DNA of 64,000 nucleotides from positions 1 through 64,000 of IMG/VR virus record IMGVR_UViG_3300030085_003924. One strand, 5' to 3'. Under the pieces are notes generated by a model. That model saw only the letters and a list, made by a program, of their open reading frames with translations, had not been told where the DNA came from and ran no database searches. This stretch comes from an uncultured virus (IMG/VR IMGVR_UViG_3300030085_003924). Lineage: Duplodnaviria > Heunggongvirae > Uroviricota > Caudoviricetes. The translations under genes were made by a program, and so were the position numbers. This document shows positions 2,584 to 39,729 of this stretch, in pieces (position 1 is the stretch's first letter; each line of letters starts with the position of its first letter).

Positions 2584-2598
2584 ACAATGGAGAATTAT

Positions 2599-3582
2599 AT
2601 GCATAAATTAGAATACTTGTGGTTGGATGGTTGTAGTCCAACACAAATAAGATATAAAACAAAAGTAGTAAAAGATTTTGGTAAAAAAGATGCACCCATT
2701 TGGGGATTTGATGGAAGTTCAACAGAACAGGCAGATGGAAACAATTCTGATTGTGTTTTAAAGCCAGTTAGGTACTATCCTAATCCATTAGAGGTGAATA
2801 GTTCAATAGTATTGTGTGAGGTATGGAATGTAAATGATACACCACATGAAACAAATACACGAAGATTATTAGAGGAAACCATTGCAGATTTAGAGGGGTA
2901 TTATGATGAATGGGTGGGTTTTGAACAAGAATATACATTGTTTGATGGTTCAGTACCATTAGGATGGCCATCAAATGGAGAACCAGCTCCACAAGGGGAT
3001 TATTATTGTGGTAGAAATATAGGTGAAAAGATTTCAAGAGAACATTTAAATGCTTGTATCGAAGCTGGTATCAGTATTTGTGGTACAAACGCAGAAGTGA
3101 TGTTAGGTCAATGGGAATATCAGATTGGTGCAGGTGGTTCAATACATATAAGTGATGATTTATGGGTTGCTCGTTGGTTATTGGAAAGAATTTGTGAGAA
3201 ACATGATGTATCAGTTTCATTACATCCAAAACCAATCGAAGGAGATTGGAATGGTGCAGGTTGTCATACCAATTTCTCTACAAACTATATGAGAGATGAA
3301 GGTGGGTATTTAGAGATAATAAATGCATGTGAAAAATTAGGTGAATTTACAAAAGAACATTTAAAAGAGTATGGTGAAGATAATGAAAAACGACTTACTG
3401 GAGAACATGAAACTTGTTCTATTGACGAATTCCGTTACGGAGTTTCAGATAGGGGAGCTTCAATTCGTATTCCGTGGCAGGTAGAAGTAGATGGTTGTGG
3501 TTATTTAGAAGATAGACGACCATCATCAAATTGTGATCCATACAAGGTTAGTGCTAGATTAATTAAAACAATATGTAAATAA
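2599..3582 (+). CDS. glnII: Glutamine synthetase type II
   Basis: LEYLWLDG, WGFDGSST, GFEQEY, NAEVMLGQWEYQIG, HPKP..GDWNGAGCHTNFST, RLTGEHET, RGASIRIP, GYLEDRRP; start placed at ATG 2599 behind GGAG (ORF track starts 2587). Confidence 0.93.
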   Translation: MHKLEYLWLDGCSPTQIRYKTKVVKDFGKKDAPIWGFDGSSTEQADGNNSDCVLKPVRYYPNPLEVNSSIVLCEVWNVNDTPHETNTRRLLEETIADLEGYYDEWVGFEQEYTLFDGSVPLGWPSNGEPAPQGDYYCGRNIGEKISREHLNACIEAGISICGTNAEVMLGQWEYQIGAGGSIHISDDLWVARWLLERICEKHDVSVSLHPKPIEGDWNGAGCHTNFSTNYMRDEGGYLEIINACEKLGEFTKEHLKEYGEDNEKRLTGEHETCSIDEFRYGVSDRGASIRIPWQVEVDGCGYLEDRRPSSNCDPYKVSARLIKTICK

Positions 3583-3597: not shown

Positions 3598-4068
3598 ATG
3601 GCAGATTTAGATTTTTCATCAATGACTAAAGATGAAATAGAAGAATATGGAAGGGAAGTTGGTATTGAGTTAGACAAGAGACACTCAAAGGCTGACTTAA
3701 TAGATGAACTCAACCAGCATCTCGAAGATGAAGTTGAGGAAGTCGAAGTAGAAGATGAGGTAGAAGATGAGGTTGAGGAAGTCGAAGTAGAAGATGAGGT
3801 AGAAGATGAGGTTGAAGAAGTGGTAGAAATTGAACCATTGGTTGAAGATATACCCGAAATAGAAGTAGACCAAGACTCTAAATTAGATGCAGCTAGAACT
3901 CAGGCAACTCATCATATATTGAGTGAACATATTAAAGGTGGAATTCAAGTATCAGCTGCGTCACATGAAAGAGTAGAAACTCTGGCAAAACAAATACACA
4001 TCAACAGAGAAAAGGCAGAAAAAAATTCTCAAAAGGTACTTGAGAAATTAGCAAAAGAAGAACAATAA
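3598..4068 (+). CDS. Acidic protein with N-terminal Rho-N/HeH-like helical domain and Glu/Asp/Val repeats
   Basis: DFSSMTKDEIEEYGREVGIELDKRHSKADLIDEL pattern; AGGAG SD; EDEVEEVEVEDEV repeats. Confidence 0.6.
   Translation: MADLDFSSMTKDEIEEYGREVGIELDKRHSKADLIDELNQHLEDEVEEVEVEDEVEDEVEEVEVEDEVEDEVEEVVEIEPLVEDIPEIEVDQDSKLDAARTQATHHILSEHIKGGIQVSAASHERVETLAKQIHINREKAEKNSQKVLEKLAKEEQ
3724..3821 (+). repeat. 39-bp in-frame tandem repeat, about 2.5 copies
   Basis: GAAGATGARGTTGAGGAAGTCGAAGTAGAAGATGAGGTA at 3724 and 3763, partial copy at 3802. Confidence 0.9.
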
Positions 4069-4084
4069 TATTAGCAAAAAAACA

Positions 4085-4122
4085 CTTGATTATTTCGGAT
4101 ATATTTCGTAAGATCAAGTATA
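4085..4122 (+). promoter_or_regulatory. Sigma70-like promoter (class A) upstream of DNA polymerase
   Basis: TTGATT-17 nt-TAAGAT with TTCG just before the -10 and CAAGTATA after; near-identical architecture at 40321. Confidence 0.7.
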
Positions 4123-4137
4123 AACTAAGAGGTTACA

Positions 4138-6645
4138 TTGTACCAAAACATATATTACGAAAGTCGTAAGAATAAAGTACATATATGGGATGACAAGAGT
4201 GGTCATGTAATCGTGCCTTATAAAAGGTACGCTTACATAAAAGATAATTATGGAACTCATGTTTCTCTATATGGTGATAGGTTAAAAAAGACATATAAGT
4301 GGGATAAAAGTGTAGAAGGATTACACGAAAGTGACATCAATCCTGAAACACGAACTCTTATTGATATGTACACTAATAGTGATGAACCATCAGTAGGACA
4401 TCGTATTATGATAATCGATATTGAGGTAGAAGTAACCGAAGGTTTTCCAAGTCCACAAAAGGCAGAAAATAAAGTTACTTCTATCGCAATACATGATAGC
4501 GAAACCGACCATTATTGGTGTTTTGTTCTTGATGAGAAAGAAAAACTTGTTCCTGATGAATGGGGGAAGAATGTAAGTGTAGAAACATTCGATAATGAGT
4601 TTGCTTTATTACAAAGGTTTTATGCTAAATATTTAGAAATGAGACCAACCATAATAACAGGTTGGAACATAGATGGTTTTGATATTCCATATCTTTATAA
4701 TCGTTCAGTTCAGATAGTTGGACAAAGTGTTGCTGATTGTCTTTCACCAATTTCAAATGTTTATTGGAATAAATTTCGTGAGAGATTTATGATAGCAGGT
4801 GTGAGTTGTTTAGATTATCTAGCGTTATATAAAAACTTCACATTTAGTTCCAAACCAAGTTATAGATTGGATGATATTGGTGTATCAGAAGTTGGAACAA
4901 ATAAGATTTCATACGAAGGAACACTAAATGACCTATATGAAAATAACTTAAATGATTTTGTAAAATATAACATACACGATGTTAGAATTGTAAAGAAGTT
5001 AGATGATAAGTTAGACTTTATAGATGTCGCTCGAGGTATTTGTCATGTAGGTCATGTTCCGTATGAAGATATACAATATGACTCAAGATTTTTGGAAGGT
5101 GCTATATTGGTGTATCTGAAAAAACTCGGTGTTGTAGCTCCAAACAAAACACCAAGAGATGATGTGAAGAAAGATGGTAAGTTTACAGGAGCTTATGTTC
5201 AGGACCCACAGAAAGGTAAACACGATTGGGTTTATGACTTGGATATCACAAGTATGTATCCATCAATCATTATGAGTTTGAATATATCACCTGAAACAAA
5301 GATTGGTAAAATTGAAGGGTGGAATCCAAAGGAATTTATTAGTGGTAGGAATAAAACTTATTCTATCATTATGAATGGTAAGAAAAAAGGACAATTTACT
5401 GAAACTGAATTGAAGGATTTCTTTGATAAAAATCATGTGTCAGTATCCAACAATGGTATTATATATAGAACTGATAAAAAAGGATTGATTCCAACATTAT
5501 TAGCAGAGTGGTTTGACAAGCGAAAAGAGTTTAGGAAACTGGCCAAAAAGTTTGGTGATGCTGGTGATGAAGAACAATATGGTTATTTTAACAGACGACA
5601 ACATATTCAAAAGATTGTGTTGAACTCCATGTATGGTGTATTGGGTTTACCTGTATTTAGATTCTATGATTTGGATAACGCCGAGGCCACTACAAAAACA
5701 GGTCAAGAGTTAATAAAATTTACCAAAAAAATTGGTAATCATTTCTATAATAAGGAATTGGGTACGGATAAAGACTATTGTATTTACATAGATACCGATT
5801 CTGTATTTTATTCGGCAGTTCCATTGGTTAAAAAACGATTTCCAAATACAGAGTTGAGTGATGTAATGATGACACAAAGAATTAATGAGATAGCAACTGA
5901 GGTTCAAGGTTATCTCAACGATAGTTACAATTACTTCGCTAAGAAGTTCTGTAATCTTGATAAACATCGTTTTGAAATCAAACAAGAGATTGTAGCAAAG
6001 TCAGGTTTGTTCATCGTGAAAAAAAGATATGGTATGAAGATTATATCGGATAATGGTGTTCAAGTAAACAAGACTATGGTAAAGGGATTAGATACGGTTC
6101 GTAGTAATTTCGCACCACTATTTAGAAAACTATTATCAGATGTATTGGATGATATTTTAGCAAGTGTTCCAAAAGATAAGATAGACCATAGAATAACACG
6201 ATTCAGAAAGAATATGAAATATAATGAACTTGACGATATCTCATCACCAACGGGTGTAAAGGGAATATGGAAATATATGGAAAAACAAGATAAAGAAAAT
6301 AGTTCTGTGTTTACCACATTTAAAAAGGGAACTCCTGTTCATGTAAAAGCAGCAATAGCATATAATGACTTGGTTAGATATTTTAAACAAGATAAAAAAT
6401 ATCAATTCATAAATAATGGAGATAAGATTCGTTGGGTGTATTTGAAGAATAATCCATTGGGTTTAAATGCAGTTGCTTATAAAGGACATGAGGACCCACC
6501 TGAGATACTTAGATTTATAAATGACCATATTGACCATGATAAGATATATGGACAAGCATTAACTAAAAAATTACAAATGTTCTACGATTGTTTGGATTGG
6601 GGAAAGCCAGTAGATGAAGAACAGAGTATAGAAAGATTTTTTTGA
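4138..6645 (+). CDS. polB: Family B DNA polymerase with 3'-5' exonuclease (T4 gp43-like)
   Basis: ExoI DIEV, ExoII WNIDGFDIPY, ExoIII YNIHDV, Pol motifs DLDITSMYPSII, KIVLNSMYG, YIDTDS, KKRY; TTG start after GAGGT. Confidence 0.97.
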   Translation: MYQNIYYESRKNKVHIWDDKSGHVIVPYKRYAYIKDNYGTHVSLYGDRLKKTYKWDKSVEGLHESDINPETRTLIDMYTNSDEPSVGHRIMIIDIEVEVTEGFPSPQKAENKVTSIAIHDSETDHYWCFVLDEKEKLVPDEWGKNVSVETFDNEFALLQRFYAKYLEMRPTIITGWNIDGFDIPYLYNRSVQIVGQSVADCLSPISNVYWNKFRERFMIAGVSCLDYLALYKNFTFSSKPSYRLDDIGVSEVGTNKISYEGTLNDLYENNLNDFVKYNIHDVRIVKKLDDKLDFIDVARGICHVGHVPYEDIQYDSRFLEGAILVYLKKLGVVAPNKTPRDDVKKDGKFTGAYVQDPQKGKHDWVYDLDITSMYPSIIMSLNISPETKIGKIEGWNPKEFISGRNKTYSIIMNGKKKGQFTETELKDFFDKNHVSVSNNGIIYRTDKKGLIPTLLAEWFDKRKEFRKLAKKFGDAGDEEQYGYFNRRQHIQKIVLNSMYGVLGLPVFRFYDLDNAEATTKTGQELIKFTKKIGNHFYNKELGTDKDYCIYIDTDSVFYSAVPLVKKRFPNTELSDVMMTQRINEIATEVQGYLNDSYNYFAKKFCNLDKHRFEIKQEIVAKSGLFIVKKRYGMKIISDNGVQVNKTMVKGLDTVRSNFAPLFRKLLSDVLDDILASVPKDKIDHRITRFRKNMKYNELDDISSPTGVKGIWKYMEKQDKENSSVFTTFKKGTPVHVKAAIAYNDLVRYFKQDKKYQFINNGDKIRWVYLKNNPLGLNAVAYKGHEDPPEILRFINDHIDHDKIYGQALTKKLQMFYDCLDWGKPVDEEQSIERFF

Positions 6646-6682
6646 TTTTGGTAAATAACTTTGATATATATGTATATATCAA
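6644..6682 (+). promoter_or_regulatory. Class B promoter-like motif overlapped by a perfect 10-bp inverted repeat
   Basis: GATTTTG-13 nt-ATATATAT; TTGATATATA-TG-TATATATCAA palindrome at 6661-6682. Confidence 0.6.
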
Positions 6683-6704
6683 CTAATATAAGGAGAAATG
6701 ATAA

Positions 6705-7424
6705 ATGAATAAATACAAATTAACTCGATTCATTGATAAGTACCATTTAGGTGGTAATGTGAATGCAGTAGTTATCAATAGTAAAGGAGATAGTCTTTCG
6801 ACTCGATTCATTACTGGTGATAAGGCACTACTTGGTGAATTAAAAATGAATAATTGGACATTCGAAGATTCAGAATTAGGAGTTTACGATACAGAACAAC
6901 TTAGTAGATTACTTGGTGTTTTGGATGATGATGTAACTCTTAATTTGACTCAATCAGGAGATAAAGCTATCGCTGTGGAGATTTCTGATTCATTATCTAA
7001 GGTCAACTTTATGTTGTCGGATAAATCAGTAATCAACCAACCACCAGCCTTAAAACAACTTCCTGAATTTCAAGTTGAGATAAAAGTGGATGCTAATTTC
7101 ATTCAGAGATTCATTAGTGGTAAATCTGCATTACCTGATACCGATACCTTTACGGTTATTACCGATGATGATGGAGTGAAACTTGTAATAGGTTATTCTT
7201 CAATTAATACAAATAGAGTTACGATTCCTGTTGAGACTACATCGTCATCCGACATAGAAAAGGTTTCTTTTAACGCAAATCTATTTAAAGATGTTCTTAC
7301 TGCAAATAAAGAATGTGAAAGTGCGACATTATATGTTGCTCAAGATGGTTTGTCAAAAATCAATTTTAAGGTTGATGATTATGACGCAACTTACTACCTC
7401 GTAGCAGTTCAGGATGTCGATTAA
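6705..7424 (+). CDS. DNA polymerase sliding clamp (gp45/PCNA-like)
   Basis: 239 aa, directly after polB; LGVYDTEQLSRLLGVL resembles the gp45 IYDL..FL..L motif; C-terminal YYLVA strand. Confidence 0.8.
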   Translation: MNKYKLTRFIDKYHLGGNVNAVVINSKGDSLSTRFITGDKALLGELKMNNWTFEDSELGVYDTEQLSRLLGVLDDDVTLNLTQSGDKAIAVEISDSLSKVNFMLSDKSVINQPPALKQLPEFQVEIKVDANFIQRFISGKSALPDTDTFTVITDDDGVKLVIGYSSINTNRVTIPVETTSSSDIEKVSFNANLFKDVLTANKECESATLYVAQDGLSKINFKVDDYDATYYLVAVQDVD

Positions 7425-8391
7425 TTTCGACAACTTCCCAACTTTTAGTGAAGAACATTTTCATACTTGGATAAATGAATTAACACCGATTGAAGAACAC
7501 AAAGGTTATCTTGTCAAAAGGGATGACCTTTTCAATCTCGGTGGAGTTAGTGGAGGCAAAGTTAGACAATGTTCTAAACTTGTCTATGATAATTTAGACC
7601 ACATTAAAAACGATTGTAATGGTGGGATATTAACTGCTGCTGGTATACCATCACCACAAAGTTGTATCACATCAGCAGTTGCTAAGTATTTTGGATTAAA
7701 ATGTTTGGTTACAATACCACATTATCCAGATCACATTAGAGATAGTTATAGAGTGAATGCTTCGTTATCTCAAAAGTTTGGTGCCAAAGTATATGGTGTA
7801 GGGAATCCGAATATATCGGGTCCCGAACTTGATGCTAAAAAGTTGGTTGGTGAAACAGGTTATTTTCAGATAAAATTTGGAATGAATGGAAAACAAGTGA
7901 TGGAAACTATTGCTCAACAAGTGAAAAATATTCCTGACTGTGTAGATACCGTTGTGGGAATAGCTGGAAGTGGATTGTCTATGTTAGGTGTAGCATTAGG
8001 TTGTAAGTTGTATAACAAAAATGTTAAAACTATCCATCCTGTAGCATTGAGTGGTTATATTGATAAAAACAAAAAAATGTGGTATGATCGTCTCAGTCAA
8101 GATCTTAAATTTGACGGAGAATTTCATGTGGTTCAGTCAGAATATCCATATCAACATAAATTGAAATTGGATGAATCTTTACCACTTGACCAAACATATG
8201 AGGCAAAGGCATGGGATTGGATGGTAAAGAACTTAGAACCATCTGAAAAGGTTTTGTTTTGGGATGTTGGTATCAAAGAGTATGACTTAGAATACATCGA
8301 ACCAATAAATTGGCACAAATCAGAATACGAAAAAATCATTGATAGAGAACTAAGAAGGAAACATGAGCAAGTCGAACACAACTTTTTCTAA
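7414..8391 (+). CDS. PLP-dependent fold-type II enzyme (ACC deaminase/D-cysteine desulfhydrase-like)
   Basis: LVKRDDL...GGKVRQ (PLP lysine), AGSGLS phosphate loop, LDQTYEAKAW, LFWDVG. Confidence 0.8.
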   Translation: MSINFDNFPTFSEEHFHTWINELTPIEEHKGYLVKRDDLFNLGGVSGGKVRQCSKLVYDNLDHIKNDCNGGILTAAGIPSPQSCITSAVAKYFGLKCLVTIPHYPDHIRDSYRVNASLSQKFGAKVYGVGNPNISGPELDAKKLVGETGYFQIKFGMNGKQVMETIAQQVKNIPDCVDTVVGIAGSGLSMLGVALGCKLYNKNVKTIHPVALSGYIDKNKKMWYDRLSQDLKFDGEFHVVQSEYPYQHKLKLDESLPLDQTYEAKAWDWMVKNLEPSEKVLFWDVGIKEYDLEYIEPINWHKSEYEKIIDRELRRKHEQVEHNFF

Positions 8392-8911
8392 AGCTTGGTT
8401 AGAAAAAAAGATAATGTGTGGTTTATGTAACTTTGGTTGCTGTAACCACAATTCTTTTCATGTCGAGATTACAGAACAAGAACAAGAAAAGTATAGAAAA
8501 AAGTTTGGATTGGATTTAGAACTCGAATGGTCACAAGATGGATGTTGTGATTTGTTGAGTGAGGATGGAAGTGGTTGTAGTTTAGGAAATGAAAGACCTA
8601 TATTTTGTAAAACATATCCATTAGTAGAGAATAAATCAGGTCGTGTGGTGATTAACAATTGGGCATATTTACATTGTCCAAAACCTGATAACTATGAGTT
8701 GGATAAGGTAGTGGATGGGAAATATCACTACAAGTTGAAAAAGAAACATAAGAATAAACGAGATGAATTAATACTTGATGATAAGATGGAAAATGTGGTC
8801 AAACAGATTTGGTTACAATCAAAGGAAGCACTTATTGAAACCTATGGTGAAGAATTTTATGAAAAAATAAAAAATGAAATGAAACAAACAATTAAACACG
8901 AGTTCTTTTAA
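8363..8911 (+). CDS. YkgJ/CxxCxxCC-family cysteine-cluster (Fe-S or Zn) protein
   Basis: CGLCNFGCC ... CCDLL...CSL..ERPIFCKTYP ... CP. Confidence 0.75.
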   Translation: MSKSNTTFSKAWLEKKIMCGLCNFGCCNHNSFHVEITEQEQEKYRKKFGLDLELEWSQDGCCDLLSEDGSGCSLGNERPIFCKTYPLVENKSGRVVINNWAYLHCPKPDNYELDKVVDGKYHYKLKKKHKNKRDELILDDKMENVVKQIWLQSKEALIETYGEEFYEKIKNEMKQTIKHEFF

Positions 8912-9933
8912 TGAGTACAGAAACAGCCTTTTGTGATTTACCTTGGACAAGACTTAAAGTTAGTCCTGGTGGAGAAATAACTAATTGTTGTTGGCAACAG
9001 ATTGGTATTGGAAATGTGCTACATAATTCATTTGAAAGGTTGTGGACTAAAAATAATGTCTTAGAGGAGATTAGAGAAGATACGAGAAATGGGGTTTTAC
9101 ATTCACTATGTAAGGAATTTGGTTGTTGTCCATACATGAATCAATCAGAAAATCCTGAATGGAAATCTTGGTATTCTAACGAAAAAAATACTTTTGAATA
9201 TGGTGATTACCCATCGATGTTGGAACTTGATTTACCTAACACTCATTGTAATATAGGACCTGGTATTCCAAATGATGATACTAATCCTGCATGTATTATG
9301 TGTGCAAGGCGAATTGATGGTTTTGTAAATGATACTACTTCATTTTTTGATGATATAGTGGATAGAATAAAATTCTTAATGCCTCATTTGATTAGAATTC
9401 ATGTACAAGGTTATGCCGAACCATTTTATAAAGACATAGTTTTTGAGGTTTTGGACAGATTAGATTTCAAATCTTTTAAAAAAGATATATGGTTGAGTGT
9501 TATTACAAATGGGATGTATATCAATAAAAAAAGTTCTACCAAATGGATGAATTCATCTGATAGAAATACTATTATGGTTTCAATAGATGCTGGAAGTAGA
9601 GAAACATATAAGAAGATAAGAATAGCAGATGCTTATGATTTGGTAATAAAAAATATGACTGAGTATAGTAAAAATAGAGATAGTGAGAAGGATAAACTTC
9701 ACATTAATAATAATATTAACACGATTAATGTTCATGAGTGTGTTAAAATGATTGAAGATGCAGATAAAATTGGAGTGGATGTTATACAACTTGGTCCTAC
9801 GGATCCTATGGAAATGACGCAAGACATATGTGTAAATGAATCTAATAGAGAAATTTTTGAAGAAAATTTTGAACTTGCAAGATTAAGAGCAGAAGAATTA
9901 GGTGTTAATATTCAACTATTAAAGGGATTTTAA
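8911..9933 (+). CDS. Radical SAM protein with N-terminal SPASM/Twitch-like domain and CX14CX2C motif
   Basis: CDLPW...GEITNCC..IGNV....FERLW; CNIGPGIPNDDTNPACIMC; GYAEPF, ITNG, VSIDAGSRETYKKIR. Confidence 0.8.
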   Translation: MSTETAFCDLPWTRLKVSPGGEITNCCWQQIGIGNVLHNSFERLWTKNNVLEEIREDTRNGVLHSLCKEFGCCPYMNQSENPEWKSWYSNEKNTFEYGDYPSMLELDLPNTHCNIGPGIPNDDTNPACIMCARRIDGFVNDTTSFFDDIVDRIKFLMPHLIRIHVQGYAEPFYKDIVFEVLDRLDFKSFKKDIWLSVITNGMYINKKSSTKWMNSSDRNTIMVSIDAGSRETYKKIRIADAYDLVIKNMTEYSKNRDSEKDKLHINNNINTINVHECVKMIEDADKIGVDVIQLGPTDPMEMTQDICVNESNREIFEENFELARLRAEELGVNIQLLKGF

Positions 9934-11153
9934 TGTATATAGATTATTTTGATAAATTTATGAATATGAAACCCTATCTTGAAATAAACGAGATAGAGTG
10001 GAAATATATAACAGAAACATTTGATAAAGAGGATGTGAAGGAAAGTCTCGCTACCGTAGCAATGAACTATCCACTTCCGTATCCTAATCTTACTGAGAAA
10101 TCAGCTTATAAAGATTTTATGAAACTCAAAGGGATGAAATGGAACGAAATCATGGTAGAGGGTGAATGGTACGCAAGAGAAGGAACGGAATACACATATG
10201 ATTTACTACACGATGGGAAACCATTGTATTTTAGAAGATTAAATGCTGGTAACATTTCAAGTAACTACTTTCAAATAGAAAATAGATGGAGTGTTGATGG
10301 TTCGGTAGCACCAGGACCTAAACGAACTTGGGAAACTCATAAGTTTATGACGACACTCATGGGGAGTGCATATTCACTTAAAATGACCAAGATAAATAGA
10401 AATATATTGAGAACTATGATTGGACTTCGTAAGTACATCTGTTCTCAGTTCAAACCAAATGTGGCAAAGATAATTTACGATATGTTTGAGTCAGAGAACA
10501 TACTTGACTTTTCAATGGGATGGGGTGATAGGTTAGCTGGATTCTACGCTAGTGAACACGGTAAACACTATGTTGGTTTAGATCCAAGGAAGGAAAACCA
10601 CCCTATCTACAAAGAACAATCGGAGTTTTATCAAAAACATTTGGGATTTTTTGAACACGATAGAAAGTGTGAATTTCATTGTTCACCAGCGGAAGATTTT
10701 GACTTCTCACCGTATAACGAACACTTCGATATGGTATTTACGAGTCCGCCATACTTTAGCGTGGAGCGTTATAGTTATGATGATACACAAAGTTGGGTTA
10801 GATATAAAGATATAAACGATTGGAACAAGGATTTCTTACAGACGACCTTGGGTAACTTATGGGGAAGTATTAAACCAGGTGGATATTTATTGGTAAATAT
10901 TAGTGATGTCTATACAAATTCAAAATGGTCAACCGAAAGAGGTTGGTTAGAAATCTGTAATCCTATGAATGATTTTCTCTCAACACTTGGTGAATATCAA
11001 GGTTGTATTGGAATGGAAATGGCTAAAAGACCTAATAGTGGTGGAGCTGGAACGGCAAAAACTTACGAAGGTTCAGTATGGACGGAAAAATCACTTGAGA
11101 ATAAAGAAGATAAGAAATTTGGAGAACCGATTTGGGTATGGAAAAAATTGTAA
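9933..11153 (+). CDS. DNA amino-methyltransferase (N4-C/N6-A, SPPY type)
   Basis: LDFSMGWGDRLAG SAM-binding motif followed by FTSPPYF..ERY. Confidence 0.82.
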   Translation: MYIDYFDKFMNMKPYLEINEIEWKYITETFDKEDVKESLATVAMNYPLPYPNLTEKSAYKDFMKLKGMKWNEIMVEGEWYAREGTEYTYDLLHDGKPLYFRRLNAGNISSNYFQIENRWSVDGSVAPGPKRTWETHKFMTTLMGSAYSLKMTKINRNILRTMIGLRKYICSQFKPNVAKIIYDMFESENILDFSMGWGDRLAGFYASEHGKHYVGLDPRKENHPIYKEQSEFYQKHLGFFEHDRKCEFHCSPAEDFDFSPYNEHFDMVFTSPPYFSVERYSYDDTQSWVRYKDINDWNKDFLQTTLGNLWGSIKPGGYLLVNISDVYTNSKWSTERGWLEICNPMNDFLSTLGEYQGCIGMEMAKRPNSGGAGTAKTYEGSVWTEKSLENKEDKKFGEPIWVWKKL

Positions 11154-12130
11154 ATAGTCATAACGAATGGGATACTTTAAAAGAAGTATTTGTAGGTAAC
11201 ATAGAAAATCCAAATAATCCAATCAAGGGCAAAGACCTTCATTGCATTAACTATGCCGATAGAGATAACATTGATGATGTTAAAGAGGGTTATTATCCAG
11301 AACAAGTTATAGAAGAAACTAAAGAAGATTTAGAAGAATTAGTATCTACTCTCAAATCATTTGGAGTAAAGGTTAAAAGACCAACGACACAAGATAATTT
11401 TAAACCATTCTTATCAAATGGTGAGTGGATGTCAGATGGGTATTACAATTATTGTCCAAGAGATAGTGTGATTGTTATTGGTGATACTATAATTGAATCA
11501 CCTATGGCTTTGAGGTCAAGATACTTTGAAACATTTTCATTTCGTGATGATTTTATTGATTATATGAAGAAAGGTGCAAGGTGGGTATCAGCACCAAAAC
11601 CAATACTAAGAGATGATTGTTATCAAAGAGAAAACTTAGATGAACTAACATTAACAGAGGTAGAACCAATATTTGATGCAGCAAATATCCTCAGATGTAA
11701 TGATGATATATTATACTTGGTTTCCAATACAGGTAACAAGTTAGGGGCACAATGGTTACAGAATTTTCTTGGAAGTGAGTATAAAGTACATACTTTAGAA
11801 AATATGTATAGTTATGTTCACTTGGATTCTACAATTGCTTTATTACGAGAGGGATTGTGTCTATTGAATCCTGAACGAGTTAATGAAGATAATATACCCG
11901 AACCATTAAAATCTTGGGATAAGATTTGGTGTCCTGATATGGTGGATATAGGACACTATCCTAATTACAATCACGCTTCGGTTTGGATTGGTATTAATTT
12001 ATTGTCTTTGACTGAAAATTTAGTTATATGTGATGAGAACCAAACAGAGTTACACAAGGAATTATATAAAAACAATATAGAAGTTATTCCTATGAAATTA
12101 AGACATGCCAGAACACTTGGTGGTAGTTAG
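11138..12130 (+). pseudogene. Glycine/inosamine-phosphate amidinotransferase (StrB1/AGAT family), C-terminally truncated
   Basis: VNSHNEWDTLKEV.VG, NYCPRD, FDAAN, HLDST; ends RTLGGS-stop where the family has GGxFHC with the catalytic Cys. Confidence 0.8.
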
Positions 12131-13413
12131 GTGAACTTGAAAAGTTATGTATCAATTCGTGGATAGAGAATGGTTATGAATTTAATCTTTGGTTGTACGA
12201 TGATATAGAAGTGCCTGAGGGCGTGATAGTGAAAAATGCAAGTGATATTATTTCTATTGATGAATATTTTACATATGATGATGGAGTTTCTAAAGGAACT
12301 GCAGTTGCATTTTCAAATTTATTTAGGTCTAAATTATTATATCAAAGGGGTGGATTGTATATTGATTTAGATGTTTTGTGTTTGAGGCCATATAATTTTG
12401 ATAAACGATTTGTATTTTCGAGACAAATAGATAGTGAGTGGGGTTATCATGTTGCAACATGCATTATATATAGTGAAAATACCGAAGAAGAAATATTTAA
12501 TGATTGGTCGAATAGGATTATAGAAACAAAGAATGTCAGTTCAATCGCTCACGGAGATTTAGGGCCACATTTATTTACAAGGTTGATTGAATTATATAAT
12601 TTAAAAAAGTATGTGTTACCAAAAAGAAATTTTTGTCCAATTGATTGGGAATCTTACAAGGATGTACTTGAATCTAATTTTGATTCATATGGTGTTCATT
12701 TATATAGAAGTTTATGGGATGACGAGGACTATAAAAATATAAATAAATTAAAATCTCAAAATAGTATAAAAGACAATCTAACAAAATGGACTTATCCTGG
12801 AGCTTGGAGTAAAGATGGAGATGAGTGGGATGACCAAGCCATATTCTGTAATCAACCTTATGAAAAATGGAAAAGTTCATTAATAGAAACTTTTATTAAA
12901 GATAACTCTAATAATAGTGTTCTTGAAATAGGATGTGGACATGGTAGATGGAGTGAACATCTTATTAAATTTGCTAACAATGTTTCTTTGGTAGACTTAA
13001 ATGGAGAGTATGTAGATTTTTGTAAAGATAAATTTAAAGACAAGGAAAATGTAACTTTTATTAAAAATGATGGAAAGAGTTTAAGTGATATAAAAGATAA
13101 CTCAATAGATTTTATATGGTCGTATGATGTATTTGTTCATATGGATAAAAAAACTCAATTTGATTATTTTTTAGAATTTAAAAGAGTTTTAAAAAATGAT
13201 GGTAAGTGTATAATTCATCACACGATTGGAGATGTAACCAAGAGTGTAGAACCAGGATGGCGTTCAATAATATCACGAGATGAATTTAATAAAATGTTAA
13301 GGGATTCAAATCTTAATTTAAATCATCAGACTCAAAGTTGGGGTAAAAATGATGAATTTAATTGTAAATTATTTAATGATTTTATATCTGTAATTGGTAA
13401 ACATAATGATTAA
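12127..13413 (+). CDS. DXD glycosyltransferase (GT32/OCH1-like) fused to class I SAM methyltransferase; N-terminus missing
   Basis: In-frame LGELEKLCINSWIENGYEFNLWLYD upstream of 12193 with no start codon; FSNLFRSKLLYQRGGLYIDLDV; VLEIGCGHGRW, SIDFIWSYDVFVH. Confidence 0.75.
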   Translation, partial: LGELEKLCINSWIENGYEFNLWLYDDIEVPEGVIVKNASDIISIDEYFTYDDGVSKGTAVAFSNLFRSKLLYQRGGLYIDLDVLCLRPYNFDKRFVFSRQIDSEWGYHVATCIIYSENTEEEIFNDWSNRIIETKNVSSIAHGDLGPHLFTRLIELYNLKKYVLPKRNFCPIDWESYKDVLESNFDSYGVHLYRSLWDDEDYKNINKLKSQNSIKDNLTKWTYPGAWSKDGDEWDDQAIFCNQPYEKWKSSLIETFIKDNSNNSVLEIGCGHGRWSEHLIKFANNVSLVDLNGEYVDFCKDKFKDKENVTFIKNDGKSLSDIKDNSIDFIWSYDVFVHMDKKTQFDYFLEFKRVLKNDGKCIIHHTIGDVTKSVEPGWRSIISRDEFNKMLRDSNLNLNHQTQSWGKNDEFNCKLFNDFISVIGKHND

Positions 13414-22713: not shown

Positions 22714-23634
22714 ATGATTAGTTTTATTATACCATATTGTACAATAGAAAAAGATAAATTTTTAAATTTAAATGAAAAGGAGTTACTACATTGGTTAGAA
22801 AATGATTCTTCCAATATACTACATTCGACTATAAAAACTATTAGAAATGTTAACACTTTAAAATGTGAAAAAGAAATATTGATAATAGATAATAGTCATA
22901 CTTTTCCAGATATTGATTTACCAAATGTTAGGGTAATCAAGGGTTGGCAAGCACTTCCACGAGAAGAACTTGAGAATATTCCTGATTTTATGAACCATAA
23001 AGATATTCAATCAAGTTTAGATAATTTTGGTTGTTTGACTATGTGGGTGTCCATGGCATTTCATCAAGGAACACAAGAGGCAAAAGGTGATTATGTGATA
23101 TTAAATCATAATGATGTTTTTTATCATCAAGATTGTATTGATGAAATGATAAAACAAATGGAAGAAGAAAAACTTGAGTACATTTCTGTTGATAATAAAA
23201 AAATATGGATTTCTGCATATCTGTCAAATAAAGATGTATTGGATAAATATATAAAAGATTATACGGCACAACCAGTGGTGATGAGGCCAGAACAAGGTGG
23301 GTATGTGAAAACCAAAAAGATTGGGTTTGCAGATGCGTATTTTTTCCTATGTAAGAGAAAGTTCTTTGATACTTATAATGTAGATTGGGTATATCAAGAT
23401 ACGAATCACGGAGCAACTATGTATTGTCTTGAAAATAATTTGAATTATTTACATTTAGGGCCATACTATGATAATCCCAACTTCGATACAAAAGATGTTT
23501 TACACACATACAACTATAAAGGAAAACCATTTTTGAGTCATCTCAAAGGGGGATTTTCAGAGAGTAAAATGACATCATCTGATTTTTCAGATGAATTTAT
23601 AAAATATTTAGAGGAACTACAAAATGCAAAATGA
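22714..23634 (+). CDS. Glycosyltransferase family 2-like
   Basis: ISFIIPY, EILIIDNS, AKGDYVILNHNDV. Confidence 0.75.
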   Translation: MISFIIPYCTIEKDKFLNLNEKELLHWLENDSSNILHSTIKTIRNVNTLKCEKEILIIDNSHTFPDIDLPNVRVIKGWQALPREELENIPDFMNHKDIQSSLDNFGCLTMWVSMAFHQGTQEAKGDYVILNHNDVFYHQDCIDEMIKQMEEEKLEYISVDNKKIWISAYLSNKDVLDKYIKDYTAQPVVMRPEQGGYVKTKKIGFADAYFFLCKRKFFDTYNVDWVYQDTNHGATMYCLENNLNYLHLGPYYDNPNFDTKDVLHTYNYKGKPFLSHLKGGFSESKMTSSDFSDEFIKYLEELQNAK

Positions 23635-24544
23635 ACACACTCTATGGGTAGAAAAGTATCGGCCTTTAACACTCGACACTTATATTGGTAATGACCAATT
23701 AAAAAGTAAAGTCGGAGTGTACTTAGAGAGTGGAGACTTACCACATCTTTTACTATATGGAAAGGCTGGTACAGGTAAGACCACTCTCGCTAAATTACTC
23801 GTTAATAACATAGATTGTGATTATCTATACATTAACGCATCAGATGAAAATAATGTTGAAACAGTAAGGACTAAGGTTAAAAATTTCGCCTCTACTATGG
23901 GTTTCAAGGACTACAAGGTTATCATCTTGGATGAGTGTGATTATATCACACCAAATGCCCAAGCCGCCCTTCGTAATCTCATGGAGACATTCTCAAAACA
24001 TTGTCGATTCATCTTGACTTGTAATTTTGTCGAGAGAATAATCGATCCGATACAATCCCGTTGTCAGGCATTTCAAGTAATCCCACCAAACAAACAAGAT
24101 GTAGCAAAACATCTACACAATATTTTGACAGAGGAAAATATAAATTATGAAAGGGAAGATTTAGGTTTGTTGGTTAATAGTGGTTATCCTGATATAAGAC
24201 GAGTTATCAATGGAGCTCAAAGACAGGCAGTTGATGGTATATTGACGATTGATAAACAGAGTATTGTAGAGAATGATTATAAATTAAAGTTGTTAAAGAT
24301 ATTGGAAACTCAGGATAAGAAAAGTGCCTTCAATAATGTTCGTCAATTGATGGCAGATTCAAAGGTTACGGATTTTGCTGATTTATTTAGACTTCTATAT
24401 GATGAGGTTGATACTTATGGTAAAGGACATATCGCCGCCTGTATCTTAGTTATAGCAAAATATGAATTAAGTGATGCACAAGTAGTTGATAAAGAAATTA
24501 ACGCGATGGCAATGATAATAGAGTTATTAGGAATAATAAAATAA
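23624..24544 (+). CDS. Clamp loader AAA+ subunit (RFC small subunit/T4 gp44-like)
   Basis: LWVEKYRP, Walker A GKAGTGKTT, INASDE, ILDECD, AQAALR, IQSRC. Confidence 0.95.
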   Translation: MQNEHTLWVEKYRPLTLDTYIGNDQLKSKVGVYLESGDLPHLLLYGKAGTGKTTLAKLLVNNIDCDYLYINASDENNVETVRTKVKNFASTMGFKDYKVIILDECDYITPNAQAALRNLMETFSKHCRFILTCNFVERIIDPIQSRCQAFQVIPPNKQDVAKHLHNILTEENINYEREDLGLLVNSGYPDIRRVINGAQRQAVDGILTIDKQSIVENDYKLKLLKILETQDKKSAFNNVRQLMADSKVTDFADLFRLLYDEVDTYGKGHIAACILVIAKYELSDAQVVDKEINAMAMIIELLGIIK

Positions 24545-29617: not shown

Positions 29618-30790
29618 ATGGTAAAATTTTACTTCGACCTGAATAGTTATGATGAACAAGAAGTTTCTAATGATATTAAAAAAATTAAGGTTATTGACCG
29701 AAAAAAATTACAAGATGCAATAGATACATTTCAAAAAGAATTAGATTGGCGACAGATGTGGTCGGTTGATGATGCACAGGAACGATTAGACGATGGTTGG
29801 TGGTTTTATATAATAGAAAGGGATGATAAATACATTGGTTGGGGATGGTTCGATACTTCACAAAAAAAGTTTTGTAATTTATATGTTCACAAAGATTACA
29901 GAGCAGACGGATATGGAAAAGATTTAGTGTATGTAAGGTTGAATGAGTGTAAGAAACAGAATATAGAAAAGGTTTGGATGGAAGTCAATCGCTGGAATGT
30001 ACCAATTCAAAAAATTAATCAGAAACTTGGATGGACACCAAAGATACATTATACATTTTGGACTGGAGGTTATGATTCTACTTTTTATGTTATAAATTCT
30101 TTATTAGAGGGAAAAGTTGTACAACCTATTTACATAGATGATACGAAAAGACATGGTGGTTATCATGAAAATAGTCTTGTTTTTCGGAGAGATGGAAATG
30201 AAAATAAATATCCAAGAAAATCAACTAATATAGAGTTAGAAAGAATGGAGTGGTTACGAGAAAGAATTTATGAAAATATACCAAATACTAAAGAATTATT
30301 TTTACCTCTATGGGTAATTGAAAAACCTATAGCAGAAGATGAAGAAATAAGTAAATTTGTAGAAAAATATAATGAATGGATTCCAGAACCTGTTTATAAA
30401 AATAAATATGGAAAAGGTCAATGGTTAGAAGCACAAGCAGATATTGTATTAAGATTTCAAAAACAATTTGGACTTAAAATTGATTATCCTATAGAACGAA
30501 TTGATGGAGAGTGGTATGAAATATTTGATTGTGCAATATCTGATGGTAAATTTGATTCTGAAAAATTACCAAAAGAATATAGTGATGTAAAGATATGGGA
30601 GAATTTTAACTATCCAATAAGACATCTTAGTAAAGAAGAAGAATTGGAAATAGCAAAACAAAAAGGATTTGACAAGTTGTTGTACTATACTTGGACTTGT
30701 TGGTATCCAAAAGATGATGAACCTTGTAATGAATGTAAAATGTGTAAGGAGAGAATAATAGAATGTCGGAGTATTGGGGATACCACTTAA
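29618..30790 (+). CDS. GNAT acetyltransferase fused to QueC-like PP-loop ATPase
   Basis: LYVHKDYRADGYGKDL...QKLGW (GNAT); FWTGGYDST PP-loop; PIRHLSKEE; TWTC-X7-CNECKMC zinc site. Confidence 0.8.
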   Translation: MVKFYFDLNSYDEQEVSNDIKKIKVIDRKKLQDAIDTFQKELDWRQMWSVDDAQERLDDGWWFYIIERDDKYIGWGWFDTSQKKFCNLYVHKDYRADGYGKDLVYVRLNECKKQNIEKVWMEVNRWNVPIQKINQKLGWTPKIHYTFWTGGYDSTFYVINSLLEGKVVQPIYIDDTKRHGGYHENSLVFRRDGNENKYPRKSTNIELERMEWLRERIYENIPNTKELFLPLWVIEKPIAEDEEISKFVEKYNEWIPEPVYKNKYGKGQWLEAQADIVLRFQKQFGLKIDYPIERIDGEWYEIFDCAISDGKFDSEKLPKEYSDVKIWENFNYPIRHLSKEEELEIAKQKGFDKLLYYTWTCWYPKDDEPCNECKMCKERIIECRSIGDTT

Positions 30791-31119
30791 TACTTGATTG
30801 TAAATCAGGTAATAATGTTGATGATAAACAAAATATAAAAAATTTTGTTACTGATTTGGTTGATAGAATCGATATGGTTGCATTTGGAAATCCAATAGTA
30901 GAACATTTTGCATCTCACGATAAAGAAAAGGCTGGGTTTAGTCTTGTTCAGTTAATAGAAACAAGTTCTATCGTTGGACATTTTGTAGATAAAAATGGTG
31001 ATTTTTATTTAGATATTTTTTCGTGTAAAAAATTTAAAAGGCATATAGTTATAGAATGTGTGAAGCAATATTTTTCACCTTTTAGTGTGAAAGAGACATA
31101 CTTATTAAGACAATCGTAA
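30763..31119 (+). CDS. speD: S-adenosylmethionine decarboxylase proenzyme (pyruvoyl)
   Basis: WGYHLILDC, GFSLVQLIETSSIVGHF, YLDIFSCK. Confidence 0.88.
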   Translation: MSEYWGYHLILDCKSGNNVDDKQNIKNFVTDLVDRIDMVAFGNPIVEHFASHDKEKAGFSLVQLIETSSIVGHFVDKNGDFYLDIFSCKKFKRHIVIECVKQYFSPFSVKETYLLRQS

Positions 31120-31955: not shown

Positions 31956-32856
31956 ATTTTTAAAAGGATTCTTAGCAATAGCAACTGCAGTATTCGCTTG
32001 GTCAACCCTTGAGGTTACTGGTAGTTTTATATTTGCTGAAGGAGCAGGACCCGTATCGGTATTGTCGGTTAGATTTCTAATCGCCACACTATTGTTTGGT
32101 GGGGTAATGTTATGGAAGAAACAAACAACAGGTGAAAATCTGTTCGCAGTGGAAAAGGAAGATAGGAAGAAATTTCTATTAAATGGTGTAATATTGGCAG
32201 CACACTTATTAGTGTATTGGTTCGCTTGGGAACTACTCGACCCGAACCTACCTGTTATTTACGCACTATTCTATATATATCCATTTATACTATGTTTGAT
32301 TTCTATATTTTACTATGGAGAAAAATTTAGTAATAATAGAAAACTTGCATTAGGATTGGGAACTATTGGTTGTGCGTTCGCTATTGAACTGATACCATCA
32401 TTCTCAACCGAAGCTCTGAACACCGAAGGTGTATTATTGGGTGTGGCAGCTGGGATATCTTGGGTAGCCTACTTGTTAGTAGGACAAGATATAATGAAAA
32501 AATATAAACCACTTACGATTGTATTTTATGACTTTCTACAAGTGTTCGCTTATGTTTCATTATTTCAATCACCAATGACAACCATTTCGGAAGTAACATT
32601 TAACGGATTACTTGCAATTGCTTACATTTCAGTAGTGGCAAGTTTTATCGCTTATCTATGTTATTGGATAGCAGTTAAGAATATTGGAGCAACCAATACA
32701 GGAATTGCTGAATTGGGAACACCGATATTTGGAGTAACACTCGGTTACTTTTTTCTATCTATGACACCATCATTGTGGCAGATAGCTGGACTTGTAATGA
32801 TTTCAAGTGGATTATATCTAATCTACAACGAAAAACAAGTCGTATATGACCAATGA
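31948..32856 (+). CDS. EamA/DMT family transporter
   Basis: About 10 hydrophobic helices, RFLIA, YPF, GTPIFGVTLGYFFL...WQIAGLVMI. Confidence 0.88.
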   Translation: MTKFLKGFLAIATAVFAWSTLEVTGSFIFAEGAGPVSVLSVRFLIATLLFGGVMLWKKQTTGENLFAVEKEDRKKFLLNGVILAAHLLVYWFAWELLDPNLPVIYALFYIYPFILCLISIFYYGEKFSNNRKLALGLGTIGCAFAIELIPSFSTEALNTEGVLLGVAAGISWVAYLLVGQDIMKKYKPLTIVFYDFLQVFAYVSLFQSPMTTISEVTFNGLLAIAYISVVASFIAYLCYWIAVKNIGATNTGIAELGTPIFGVTLGYFFLSMTPSLWQIAGLVMISSGLYLIYNEKQVVYDQ

Positions 32857-37163: not shown

Positions 37164-37174
37164 CTAAAATAATT

Positions 37175-37206: not shown

Positions 37207-37662
37207 ATGAAAAAGGTTATTAAAAACAAAGGTCTATTCGACCACATCACACACATCACACAAAAACAGACCAAAGGGTATTGGGATTCTCTGAATGAAA
37301 CGGAACAGAAGCAATGGTCTAATTATATGATACATAGATTCTTATCTATGAAGATGGAATATACAGAGGTGGTGAATGAGATTCAAAAATACAATTTAAA
37401 ACCAAAAGACTTATATAAATTATACACCAATGTTTTACCGAAGAAAAGAGAGTGGTTAAAATATACAAAAGGAAAGAAAGATATGAAGTATGAAAAATGG
37501 CTAGTAGAGATAGTGGCCAAGCATTACGAATCAAGTCTATCTGAGGCTAGGGAGTACCTACAAGTGTTTTATTCTACCGAACAAAATAAGGCAAATCTAA
37601 AGACACTTTTGCAAAGGTATGGAGTTGAACCAAAGGAAATTAAAAAACTAAATTTACCATAA
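37207..37662 (+). CDS. Clamp loader small subunit (T4 gp62-like)
   Basis: LFD....I...K, YMIHRFLSM, VNE, LPKKREWLKY, HYESSLSEAREYL. Confidence 0.75.
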   Translation: MKKVIKNKGLFDHITHITQKQTKGYWDSLNETEQKQWSNYMIHRFLSMKMEYTEVVNEIQKYNLKPKDLYKLYTNVLPKKREWLKYTKGKKDMKYEKWLVEIVAKHYESSLSEAREYLQVFYSTEQNKANLKTLLQRYGVEPKEIKKLNLP

Positions 37663-37678: not shown

Positions 37679-38647
37679 ATGTATTTGTATCTTGACAATG
37701 TGGGGTGGTCATTGATAGACACAGGATTTGGAAATCGTATGCAGTTTTGGGAATATGCATATGAATTGAATAGACGGAATGGTTTTAATTTTAAGATGGC
37801 AGTCGAAGAACGAATGTGGGCAGAAACAAAATATTTAAATTTTCCATATACTGAAACATTTAATGTATTTTTTGGTGATTATCTTCCATCACAGAATATA
37901 TCATTAGTTGATCCAAGACTACCTTTTAAAACATTAGATGTAAATAAAAGTTATAATGTTCTTGGTGAGTGGCCACCATATTTGGGTGAAGGAGTAGAAT
38001 CTTGTTATGGAAAATGGGTACATTTGATTACATTGAAGGACAAGATAATTGAAAATAAGATTAAAAATTTGGTGAAGGATAGAATTGGGATTCATGTTAG
38101 ACATTGGCCAGTATTAGATGATACCGATGAAAGAGACAATAAAGTAGAAAGATTTGATTACAAGGGGAAGATGGAGTTATTAAGAAAAACAATGGATAAA
38201 TATCCTAATTCTAAATTTTATATGAGTACAGATTGTACATATGATAAGCCTGGTCAAACACCACCATTGCCTGATTTTAGAAAGGAATCCCATTGGATAT
38301 CTGAAATTTATAAGGACTACGATGTGGTTGATTACAGAGATATATTAGATGTGAGTAAAGTAGTCTCGAATACATTTCCCGATATAGATAATAATGGGTG
38401 GAAGATGGTATTGGATGATGAGGGAAAGCCTGTTAAAGAAATTCGTATTTTTTATCAAACAGGTCCTAAAGGTGGTTTTTTTGATAAATATTCACAATCA
38501 ACGGAAGATGTAAAAATATATAGAGATTGTGTTGATTTATTTGGATTGATTTATAGTAAAAAATTTATAAAGTCAGAAGAAACAGGTCCAGGATCTTCTT
38601 GGAGTGATTTTGTTTCATTTTACAGACAAACAATATGGCAAGAGTAA
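37679..38647 (+). CDS. Fucosyltransferase-like GT-B protein
   Basis: TGFGNRMQ, IGIHVRH, FYMSTD, DLFGL, SSWS. Confidence 0.65.
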   Translation: MYLYLDNVGWSLIDTGFGNRMQFWEYAYELNRRNGFNFKMAVEERMWAETKYLNFPYTETFNVFFGDYLPSQNISLVDPRLPFKTLDVNKSYNVLGEWPPYLGEGVESCYGKWVHLITLKDKIIENKIKNLVKDRIGIHVRHWPVLDDTDERDNKVERFDYKGKMELLRKTMDKYPNSKFYMSTDCTYDKPGQTPPLPDFRKESHWISEIYKDYDVVDYRDILDVSKVVSNTFPDIDNNGWKMVLDDEGKPVKEIRIFYQTGPKGGFFDKYSQSTEDVKIYRDCVDLFGLIYSKKFIKSEETGPGSSWSDFVSFYRQTIWQE

Positions 38648-39729
38648 ATTATGAAACTCTCGGTAAGATCATCGATGTGGATGAGAAAGACTTAGAGTTT
38701 GAAAGGGTTACAAATTCAATAGATGTGGTAGATATTGAGTATGGTGTAGAAGTCATATTTGATTACTATCGTAGGCATGGATTCCCTCACTACACAATTC
38801 GTGAAGATGAAAAACACGACCATTTGAAAAAACTGAGAAAGTTTGATGTCGATACGATATTCAAAGATAATCAGATAGTTCAAACTATGCATGGATTAAG
38901 ATTATGTTGGACTTACTTTCCACACTTTTGGGAAGTGGTGTGTGGTAGTGCTAAAAAATCACCTATGGATATATTTCACGATGATGATATGTTCAAATCT
39001 ACGATTCGTAAGTGTTGGAAATGGGAACAGAAACATTACAAGGGTGAGGATCCAGATGGAGAGAGAAATGTATTTCACGAAAATAGATTAAGACAATCCA
39101 TTAAAATATATAGTGGTACACAATCCGTGAGTAATTTCAGACCGACAGCAGCAAAACTAATCTACGAGAAGTTCGGTGGGGATGGAGTCATTAGAGATAT
39201 GAGTTGTGGTTGGGGTGGTAGATTACTTGGATTTTTATCTGCATCAAACACTAAGCATTACATAGGAACTGAACCATCTACAAAGACTTATGAAGGTTTA
39301 TTGCAAATGAGCAAAGAATTTGACTATATTAATAAGAAAGTTGATATATATAAACAAGGGAGTGAAGATTTCGTTCCTAAAAAACAATCAATCGATTTAT
39401 GTTTTACTTCACCACCTTATTTCGATACAGAGAAATACTCAGATGAGGAAACTCAAAGTTATATTAAATTCCCATCCAATGATGAATGGGTAAATGGATT
39501 TTTAAAAAAGACCATAGAGAATTGTCACTATGGTTTAAAGAAAAATGGTTATATGTTAATGAATATTGCAAACACACCAAAATATAAATTTATAGAAGAA
39601 GAAACCGTAAGGATTTCCAAAGAGTTGGGTTTTATCCAAGAGGATACCTTACAATTAACATTATCGAGTGTGATGGGGGCAGGTTATAAATACGAACCTG
39701 TTTTTGTCTTTAAGAAAAAGGAAATATGA
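38635..39729 (+). CDS. DNA amino-methyltransferase (SPPY type, paralog of 9933)
   Basis: SNFRPTAAK, DMSCGWGGRLLG, YIGTEP, FTSPPYFDTEKY. Confidence 0.85.
   Translation: MARVNYETLGKIIDVDEKDLEFERVTNSIDVVDIEYGVEVIFDYYRRHGFPHYTIREDEKHDHLKKLRKFDVDTIFKDNQIVQTMHGLRLCWTYFPHFWEVVCGSAKKSPMDIFHDDDMFKSTIRKCWKWEQKHYKGEDPDGERNVFHENRLRQSIKIYSGTQSVSNFRPTAAKLIYEKFGGDGVIRDMSCGWGGRLLGFLSASNTKHYIGTEPSTKTYEGLLQMSKEFDYINKKVDIYKQGSEDFVPKKQSIDLCFTSPPYFDTEKYSDEETQSYIKFPSNDEWVNGFLKKTIENCHYGLKKNGYMLMNIANTPKYKFIEEETVRISKELGFIQEDTLQLTLSSVMGAGYKYEPVFVFKKKEI

Follow-up and report, generated by a model that had tools for sequence, protein, structure and literature searches.

The 74.7-kb virus record IMGVR_UViG_3300030085_003924, which belongs to an uncultured phage of marine type and is 41% complete, was analysed over its first 64 kb (the window), a stretch holding 83 non-overlapping open reading frames (ORFs) of at least 40 amino acids, 82 of them on the plus strand. 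Its gene content includes a family B DNA polymerase (PolB), a sliding clamp and clamp loader, and many sugar, glycosyltransferase and radical SAM genes. The subject of this report is the gene cluster around the clamp, where PolB, a pyridoxal phosphate (PLP) enzyme and a cysteine-cluster protein (the CxxC protein) all end in two phenylalanines, and where an enzyme of methyltransferase fold is encoded further downstream:

4138..6645, plus strand: PolB, 835 residues (PHROG 262, E 2.6e-180; Pfam DNA_pol_B)
6619-6642, plus strand: C-terminal clamp-binding-type tail of PolB, EQSIERFF (from the sequence)
6705..7424, plus strand: gp45/PCNA-type sliding clamp, 239 residues (PHROG 223 processivity factor, E 1.7e-12; RB69 gp45; Atlas)
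7414..8391, plus strand: PLP enzyme of fold type II, ViI gp226 family, 325 residues (PALP; hhalign to gp226)
8377-8388, plus strand: C-terminal HNFF of the PLP enzyme, within EQVEHNFF (from the sequence)
8363..8911, plus strand: YkgJ/CxxCxxCC (PF03692) CxxC protein, 182 residues (PF03692, E 8.3e-5, over the cut-off)
8897-8908, plus strand: C-terminal HEFF of the CxxC protein, within QTIKHEFF (from the sequence)
8911..9933, plus strand: SPASM/radical SAM gene, a variable insertion (Pfam; gene order in relatives)
9933..11153, plus strand: SPPY amino-methyltransferase-fold enzyme (PHROG 12517), 406 residues (N6_N4_Mtase, E 9.1e-6, just below the cut-off)

A sequence-only reading of this DNA had proposed that the three tails dock on the clamp, so that both enzymes would ride on it and modify nascent DNA. 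The tails are as it described: no other ORF of the 83 ends in FF, or in any aromatic pair, and the three surround the clamp gene. At a Phe content of 4.8%, 0.19 FF ends would be expected, and the probability of three or more among 82 is 9e-4, a post hoc figure for a pattern picked after sight. Conservation among relatives, the check suggested at that time, came out in favour of the tails. Of the unique C-termini with at least 45% identity, 42 of 47 for PolB, 51 of 60 for PLP and 33 of 34 for CxxC have FF among their final five residues, the misses including halves of split genes and broken ORFs. Such a tail was found in none of 20 other neighbouring families with five or more members, and as background 9 of 1810 other ORFs in the relatives' loci have FF as their last two residues. 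Counted as unique DNA tails, 41 of 44 PolB genes end in FF, two of the rest being N-terminal halves of split genes. In relatives L049, L051-L055 and L214, PolB is split into two ORFs with a gene inserted between them.

The consensus of the PCNA-interacting peptide (PIP) box is reported as Qxx[I/L]xxFF (PMC9690074). The PolB tail fits ΦxxFF, and several relatives, such as those ending QQTIERFF and QNTLERFF, fit QxxΦxxFF, with Gln at position 1 in some relatives only. The enzyme tails had been described as PIP boxes whose hydrophobic residue is shifted by one position; this did not hold up as the conserved feature, position -4 being Ile or Val in 10 of 21 PLP homologs chosen for alignment from the clade with such tails. 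A His two residues before the first Phe is present in 20 of the 21, and H-x-F-F persists while the linker before it varies, so that by alignment the enzyme motif reads as H-x-F-F and not as a shifted PIP box. The end of the core could be recognised in 201 of 236 PLP homologs. Grouped by identity, those with an aromatic pair close to the C-terminus number 17/17 at 60% or above, 17/33 at 39-60% and 9/134 below 39%, and among long or fused forms 1/17; the median C-terminal extension is 36-39 residues in the tailed group against 11 below 39% identity, a range in which the extension is missing. Another PLP branch ends QASLFT, PASLFA or PARLFP, resembling the bacterial QL(S/D)LF motif as described. 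In the structure model of the window's PLP enzyme (pLDDT 95, falling to 66 over the last residues), the extension of about 39 residues forms a helix at 304-317 followed by lower-confidence coil. The conserved aromatic pair of the PLP enzyme thus sits on a terminal linker outside the folded core; for the CxxC protein, modelled poorly (pLDDT 46, 15 sequences), the case is one of conservation. Its tail is fixed across 72-93% identity, with Phe codons that vary silently (TTT TTT in 8/15, TTC TTT in 7/15), and more distant homologs end LEKFI, LEEFML, LEKFQ, IESLFK or LEEFFA.

The identification of the gene between PolB and the PLP enzyme as a sliding clamp agrees with its match to the PHROG 223 processivity factor. 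A profile match to RB69 gp45 (1b77, E 0.021) was also obtained, and the nearest Atlas clusters that carry a family are PCNA_N or gp45-slide_C (0.93-0.94); a Pfam search of the protein gave no match, and the clamp was matched in only 2 of 50,697 phage records, at 29-36%. The window's genome also encodes a clamp loader:

23624..24544, plus strand: clamp loader large subunit (PHROG 168, E 1.3e-82)
37207..37662, plus strand: clamp loader small subunit (PHROG 225, E 6.9e-16)

The best indication that the tails address the clamp lies in the agreement between polymerase and PLP tails within a sister clade. In the complete genome G005 (179,687 bases), PolB ends DMEQFFI and the PLP enzyme FMEQFFV, although their genes lie 38 kb apart, and of 219 plus-strand ORFs no others end in FF or FFx. 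In G006 (98% complete), the corresponding ends are DMEKFFK and SIERFFV, which together with one 77-residue ORF make up 3 of 219; both genomes encode a gp45-type clamp. Structure prediction of clamp and tail, the other check suggested earlier, was run for the PLP enzyme (residues 291-325) and lends weak support, with a score of 0.41 against 0.03 for the best control, runs agreeing in at least 51% of contacts and a partner pLDDT of at least 52, with no interface given. The score mark used is reached by 116 of 157 solved pairs and 2 of 215 mismatched pairs, and scores of 0.60 or under comprise 18 solved pairs and both mismatches; the result may also reflect likeness or memory, because a like complex, RB69 gp45 with its polymerase peptide, has already been solved. 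We regard it as nearly certain that the PolB tail binds the clamp, by analogy with the established knowledge of gp43. The PLP tail probably does so as well, and for the CxxC tail we lean the same way with somewhat less assurance.

The PLP enzyme has a PALP match below the Pfam cut-off (E 4.4e-8, 33.2 bits against 35), and its family profile aligns with ViI gp226 at an hhalign probability of 99.9, with 25% identity over 258 columns. Its Lys49, invariant in 56 of 56 homologs, aligns with gp226 Lys92. The model resembles D-cysteine desulfhydrase at a template-modelling (TM) score of 0.63, the best structural matches also including 1-aminocyclopropane-1-carboxylate (ACC) deaminase. Cultured relatives, at 23-31%, come mostly from phages of Salmonella, Escherichia, Dickeya and Vibrio, and include Vi01 orf00226. 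According to the published description, gp226 decarboxylates serine bound to thymidine in DNA, with Lys92 proposed to form the aldimine (PMC8989533). The window's enzyme is thus a homolog of one of the thymidine-hypermodification decarboxylases (ViI gp226 and M6 gp52; Lee et al., PMC8989533), sharing fold type and Schiff-base Lys, but its probable partner is an enzyme of methyltransferase fold, in place of 5-HMUDK and ADDT. The partnership is underlined by fusions: among 23 long PLP homologs sent to Pfam, nine are fused to N6_N4_Mtase (with ParB as well in three of them) and one has a weak PF03692 domain, while in P0148 and L291 a close PLP homolog is fused to a member of the SPPY family to which the gene at 9933 belongs. 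In the fusions P0148, P0025 and P0026 the C-terminal extension serves as the linker, and in a quick tree (49 chosen rows, tails cut off, drawn without a clade test) these form the sister group of the tailed clade. An HD-like protein (PHROG 5889) encoded beside the PLP gene in a sister clade (L235:3591-4370, L141, L145, L248, L251) has an LFDELFGEK-like end.

Eight Cys residues of the CxxC protein (19, 22, 26, 27, 62, 72, 82 and 105) are invariant in homolog alignments. Each of its 36 unique homologs has a PLP gene or such a methyltransferase gene no more than three genes away; Atlas returned PF03692 only, and a tblastn search against cultured phages found nothing. The same family, again over the cut-off, is matched by DpdM, the dPreQ1 methyltransferase, which is reported to methylate the primary amine of preQ1 in phage DNA (bioRxiv 10.1101/2023.04.13.536721). 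The two proteins share eight Cys and a C-x9-C-x9-C spacing, but differ in the first motif (CxxCxxxCC in the window protein against CxxxxCxxCC), and no deazaguanine pathway is linked to the window gene. Orthology was rejected on direct comparison (hhalign probabilities of 0.7% and 1.1%, over 26-28 columns), and because that alignment is not significant, we treat the tie as a superfamily analogy. In phiSM, DpdM (L402:41439-42092) ends NQVNLF and a ParB-like neighbour (L402:40255-40719) TSVNLF, both like the bacterial clamp motif; this phage encodes a beta clamp at 37103-38185, in the same cluster as DpdM, and the main text of the DpdM paper (bioRxiv 10.1101/2023.04.13.536721) makes no mention of a clamp.

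The earlier proposal had confined the module to 4138..8911, and so missed what now appears, from gene order and fusions, to be its core, the tail-less methyltransferase-fold gene at 9933-11153. Its motifs are DFSMGWG and FTSPPYF, with TSPPY invariant in 12 of 12; the protein ends at its last core strand, and FF occurs in 0 of 43 unique C-termini of the window clade. The intervening radical SAM gene was rejected as a core member, since by gene order it is missing from most relatives. A different arrangement is found in further T4-like phages, a second group represented by 79 new loci (the best of 236 hits), where the same methyltransferase family, at 28% identity to the window's, has an added linker and a TLExFF-type tail. 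Among 49 unique cases there, 45 carry tails of LxxF[FLI] type, including cases away from PolB. The position that follows the methyltransferase is taken by an untailed PLP enzyme (in 15 loci), by an AspH-like oxygenase, by a GNAT-like protein or by a CxxC protein with LEKFI at its end. In 61 unique pairs of neighbouring PLP and methyltransferase genes, the PLP enzyme alone has the tail in 44, the methyltransferase alone in 10, neither in 7 and both in 0, a distribution to be read as a pattern and not as a statistic, because the pairs represent about four lineages rather than independent events, which tempers its value for a clamp-based interpretation. These counts were corrected by hand for six regular-expression calls (in five the last core strand had been taken for a methyltransferase tail, and in one a short end for a PLP tail); the raw figures were 41, 11, 5 and 4. 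The window has another gene of the same family, possibly an alternative partner:

38635..39729, plus strand: second SPPY methyltransferase, same family, without a tail (34% over 158 residues)

A different DNA methyltransferase, encoded upstream of PolB in two relatives (L099:15993-17687, L112:1737-3053), ends LVENEWF or IVQHEWF, resembling HxFF.

From the observed sequences, their conservation, homologies, fusions and tail distribution, we infer that the three FF tails are clamp-docking peptides and that the PLP, PF03692 and SPPY enzymes constitute a clamp-held, post-replicative base-modification module, the interpretation we consider somewhat better founded than not. That the three enzymes modify DNA together we hold to be likely, with slightly more assurance than their tethering. 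The idea of modification on the clamp, as originally put forward, survives in so far as the tails are conserved, that of the PLP enzyme lies on an added linker outside the core and matches the polymerase's own tail in the sister clade, and both enzyme families have members proven to act on DNA bases; the motif and the centre of the module had to be changed. The phage's own clamp would keep the module at the fork, with the tether on the two tailoring enzymes in this clade and on the methyltransferase in other phages.

As to chemistry, a tentative scheme can be drawn from the substrate needs of gp226 and DpdM and from the methyltransferase-fold transferases of 3-amino-3-carboxypropyl (acp) groups, of which TYW2 is an example. 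The methyltransferase-fold enzyme would move such an amino-acid-type group from S-adenosylmethionine (SAM) to an exocyclic base amine, the PLP enzyme would decarboxylate the group on the base, in the way that gp226 acts on DNA-bound serine, and the PF03692 protein, which is optional, would methylate the primary amine so exposed, a step that DpdM carries out on preQ1. We propose this order of steps, aminocarboxypropyl transfer, decarboxylation and methylation, as a guess with a minority chance of being right. In its broadest form the proposal is of a widespread, undescribed hypermodification pathway on a moving clamp (acp loading, PLP decarboxylation, YkgJ methylation), with the tether passed between subunits by lineage, new genes gaining tethers by copying of 3' ends, and HxFF as a new class of clamp-binding motif; so extended, it is speculative, and we rate it a little lower still than the chemistry.

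Several observations weigh against the clamp-held module. The HxFF tails lack the PIP hydrophobe at -3, and the canonical QxxΦxxFF is not matched; 16 of 33 PLP homologs at 39-60% identity are without the aromatic pair, 8 of 16 further CxxC homologs, judged by eye, have no such tail, and gp226 itself is without one. Direct CxxC-DpdM similarity is at noise level (hhalign probability 0.7-1.1%). Many relatives of the clamp have the methyltransferase with no PLP gene nearby (L042-L044, L060-L067), so that this enzyme may be a plain methylase. FF ends are also copied at the locus: genes inserted behind PolB end PTKIERFF, IESIERFF, IEIKRFF or TKINKFF(EF), copying the upstream tail, and an insert behind the CxxC gene ends MKRTINHDFF, with similar cases in the second phage group and with copied tails accounting for five of the nine background FF ends. 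An FF end near PolB is consequently not sufficient to mark a clamp client, and since inserts here often copy the upstream end, the CxxC tail, which resembles PLP tails such as MKTIEHGFF in L263, may be a copy of the PLP tail made at insertion. A 236-residue SGNH-like gene ending IESIERFF was rejected as a clamp client, its homologs having YIEEINKCI-like ends. Small nuclease-like inserts with copied upstream tails occur at L213:8729-9226, L246:5407-5949, L216:6997-7428 and L136:8693-9244, and in L322, L357 and L365.

The copying gives some substance to the idea that the tails of the two enzymes have no part in binding and are either scars left by insertion or side effects of gene overlap and T-rich junctions. 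Tail scars do occur on nuclease-like and SGNH-like inserts, and the start of the CxxC gene (TFSK) overlaps the FF codons of the PLP gene, which are TTT TTC in 19 of 22 unique tails. These scar-bearing inserts are sporadic, however, whereas the enzyme tails are fixed; the CxxC Phe codons vary silently; and the PLP enzyme keeps its FF, down to about 50% identity, without a CxxC gene downstream and far from PolB (L027, L029, L141, L144-L147, L248, L263, L271-L273). Because the PLP FF persists where there is no CxxC gene, the overlap was rejected as its cause, and we give the whole explanation the lowest chance of those weighed here. Somewhat more probable, though still improbable, is that only the PolB tail binds the clamp and that the HxFF tails dock the PLP and CxxC enzymes elsewhere, most likely on the methyltransferase, replacing the covalent link of the PLP-methyltransferase fusions in a module that would still modify DNA. 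The conserved His, absent from polymerase tails, would suit such a role, and because the extension also serves as the fusion linker in P0148, P0025 and P0026, sister to the tailed clade, it could dock the methyltransferase, a further point against the clamp. Docking between partners sits less well with the sister clade, where the homologous position carries tails matching its own polymerase, or with phages in which the methyltransferase bears the polymerase-type tail and the PLP enzyme has none; the clamp-PLP prediction also speaks, weakly, against it.

The enzymes may alternatively have nothing to do with a clamp-borne module, the PLP and CxxC proteins being metabolic or surface-glycan enzymes, or the PLP enzyme belonging to the classic 5-hydroxymethyldeoxyuridine (5-hmdU) kinase/amino-acid transferase thymidine pathway encoded elsewhere in the genome. 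The window is indeed rich in glycosyltransferase, radical SAM and sugar genes, the best structural matches are ACC deaminase and D-cysteine desulfhydrase, and the genome is 41% complete, leaving room for such a pathway. Repeated fusion of the PLP enzyme to DNA methylase and ParB domains points the other way. The dUMP hydroxymethylase of the thymidine pathway belongs to the thymidylate-synthase family, and a match to that family (PF00303) was found in 0/5 records, including 0/2 near-complete genomes with a tailed PLP enzyme, with a control of 10/14. ADDT was found in 0/4 and 0/3 records and HMUDK_hel in 0/5, searches in which the clade itself is represented by fragments only and no control passed the cut-off; neither was matched in the two near-complete genomes, with controls correspondingly weak. 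This explanation seems to us unlikely, falling between the other two. The clamp-held module thus remains our preferred reading.

Known clamp clients offer close parallels. The tails of T4 gp43 (EKASLDFLFG) and ligase (LDFLF) are described in PMC6212786, and sliding-clamp-binding motifs (SCBM) are reported to sit on linkers (PMC7892883). As with the T4/RB69 gp45 clients (gp43, gp55, gp33 and ligase) and PIP boxes, there is here a short C-terminal aromatic peptide on a linker, together with a gp45-type clamp and loader; what differs is that the clients are base-tailoring enzymes, that the motif is HxFF, and that the case is known from sequence. Recruitment of a modifying enzyme to new DNA by the clamp, as proposed here, has been described for Dnmt1 and PCNA, Dnmt1 being a eukaryotic C5 methylase, and proposed for T4 alpha-glucosyltransferase and gp45. 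The latter binding, to the detriment of our own proposal, could reportedly not be repeated when C-terminally tagged enzymes were used in pull-downs (bioRxiv 10.64898/2025.12.06.692756). The T4 pair was the one proposed case of physical coupling between phage DNA hypermodification and replication, and it failed this recent retest; in the present system, four short soluble proteins and three 12-residue peptides make such coupling testable. A literature search, consisting mostly of bibliographic entries, returned nothing on a clamp-tethered PLP or YkgJ enzyme, nor on a methyltransferase-PLP DNA pathway; Iyer et al. (2013) may have predicted methyltransferase-PLP fusions. Tails on PLP and on PF03692 enzymes are new here, as are the passing of the tail from one subunit to another, the HxFF form of the motif and the spread of tails by copying. 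The system points to a chemistry of base modification that does without the known kinase and transferase, and the copying of tails at insertion represents a route for gaining clamp motifs by which accessory genes could join the replisome.

Other features deserve brief mention. A Mom-like protein (PHROG 1384; L106:14196-14951) of a PLP-less sister clade, possibly a further clamp client, ends KEKFYE or KKDFYE in four of seven close homologs. The window carries a GNAT-QueC-like fusion, a SAM decarboxylase and an AspH-like oxygenase at 29618-31119 and 32846-33559; AspH and GNAT genes are among the types that fill the slot behind the methyltransferase in other phages. Directly upstream of PolB lie a TonB-dependent receptor-like gene (16-2544) and a glutamine synthetase gene (2587-3582), a combination common in the clade. 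A scan of genome contigs returned one distant locus only, and no host was found. A promoter scan of 3900-11300 was uninformative (35 sites against 38 in shuffles), and a perfect TTGACA-17-TATAAT match on the minus strand (7356-7328), antisense within the clamp gene, may be due to chance. The motif ATATATGTATA at 6660-6680, ahead of the clamp gene, is kept in close relatives and is likely a promoter element. Downstream of the methyltransferase, an amidinotransferase-like gene (11132-12130) ends ...HARTLGGS, whereas a relative extends further with FHCTTLDICRG, which presumably holds the catalytic Cys. The next gene (12193-13413) is apparently without a start, and the pair probably marks a deletion junction or an assembly join.

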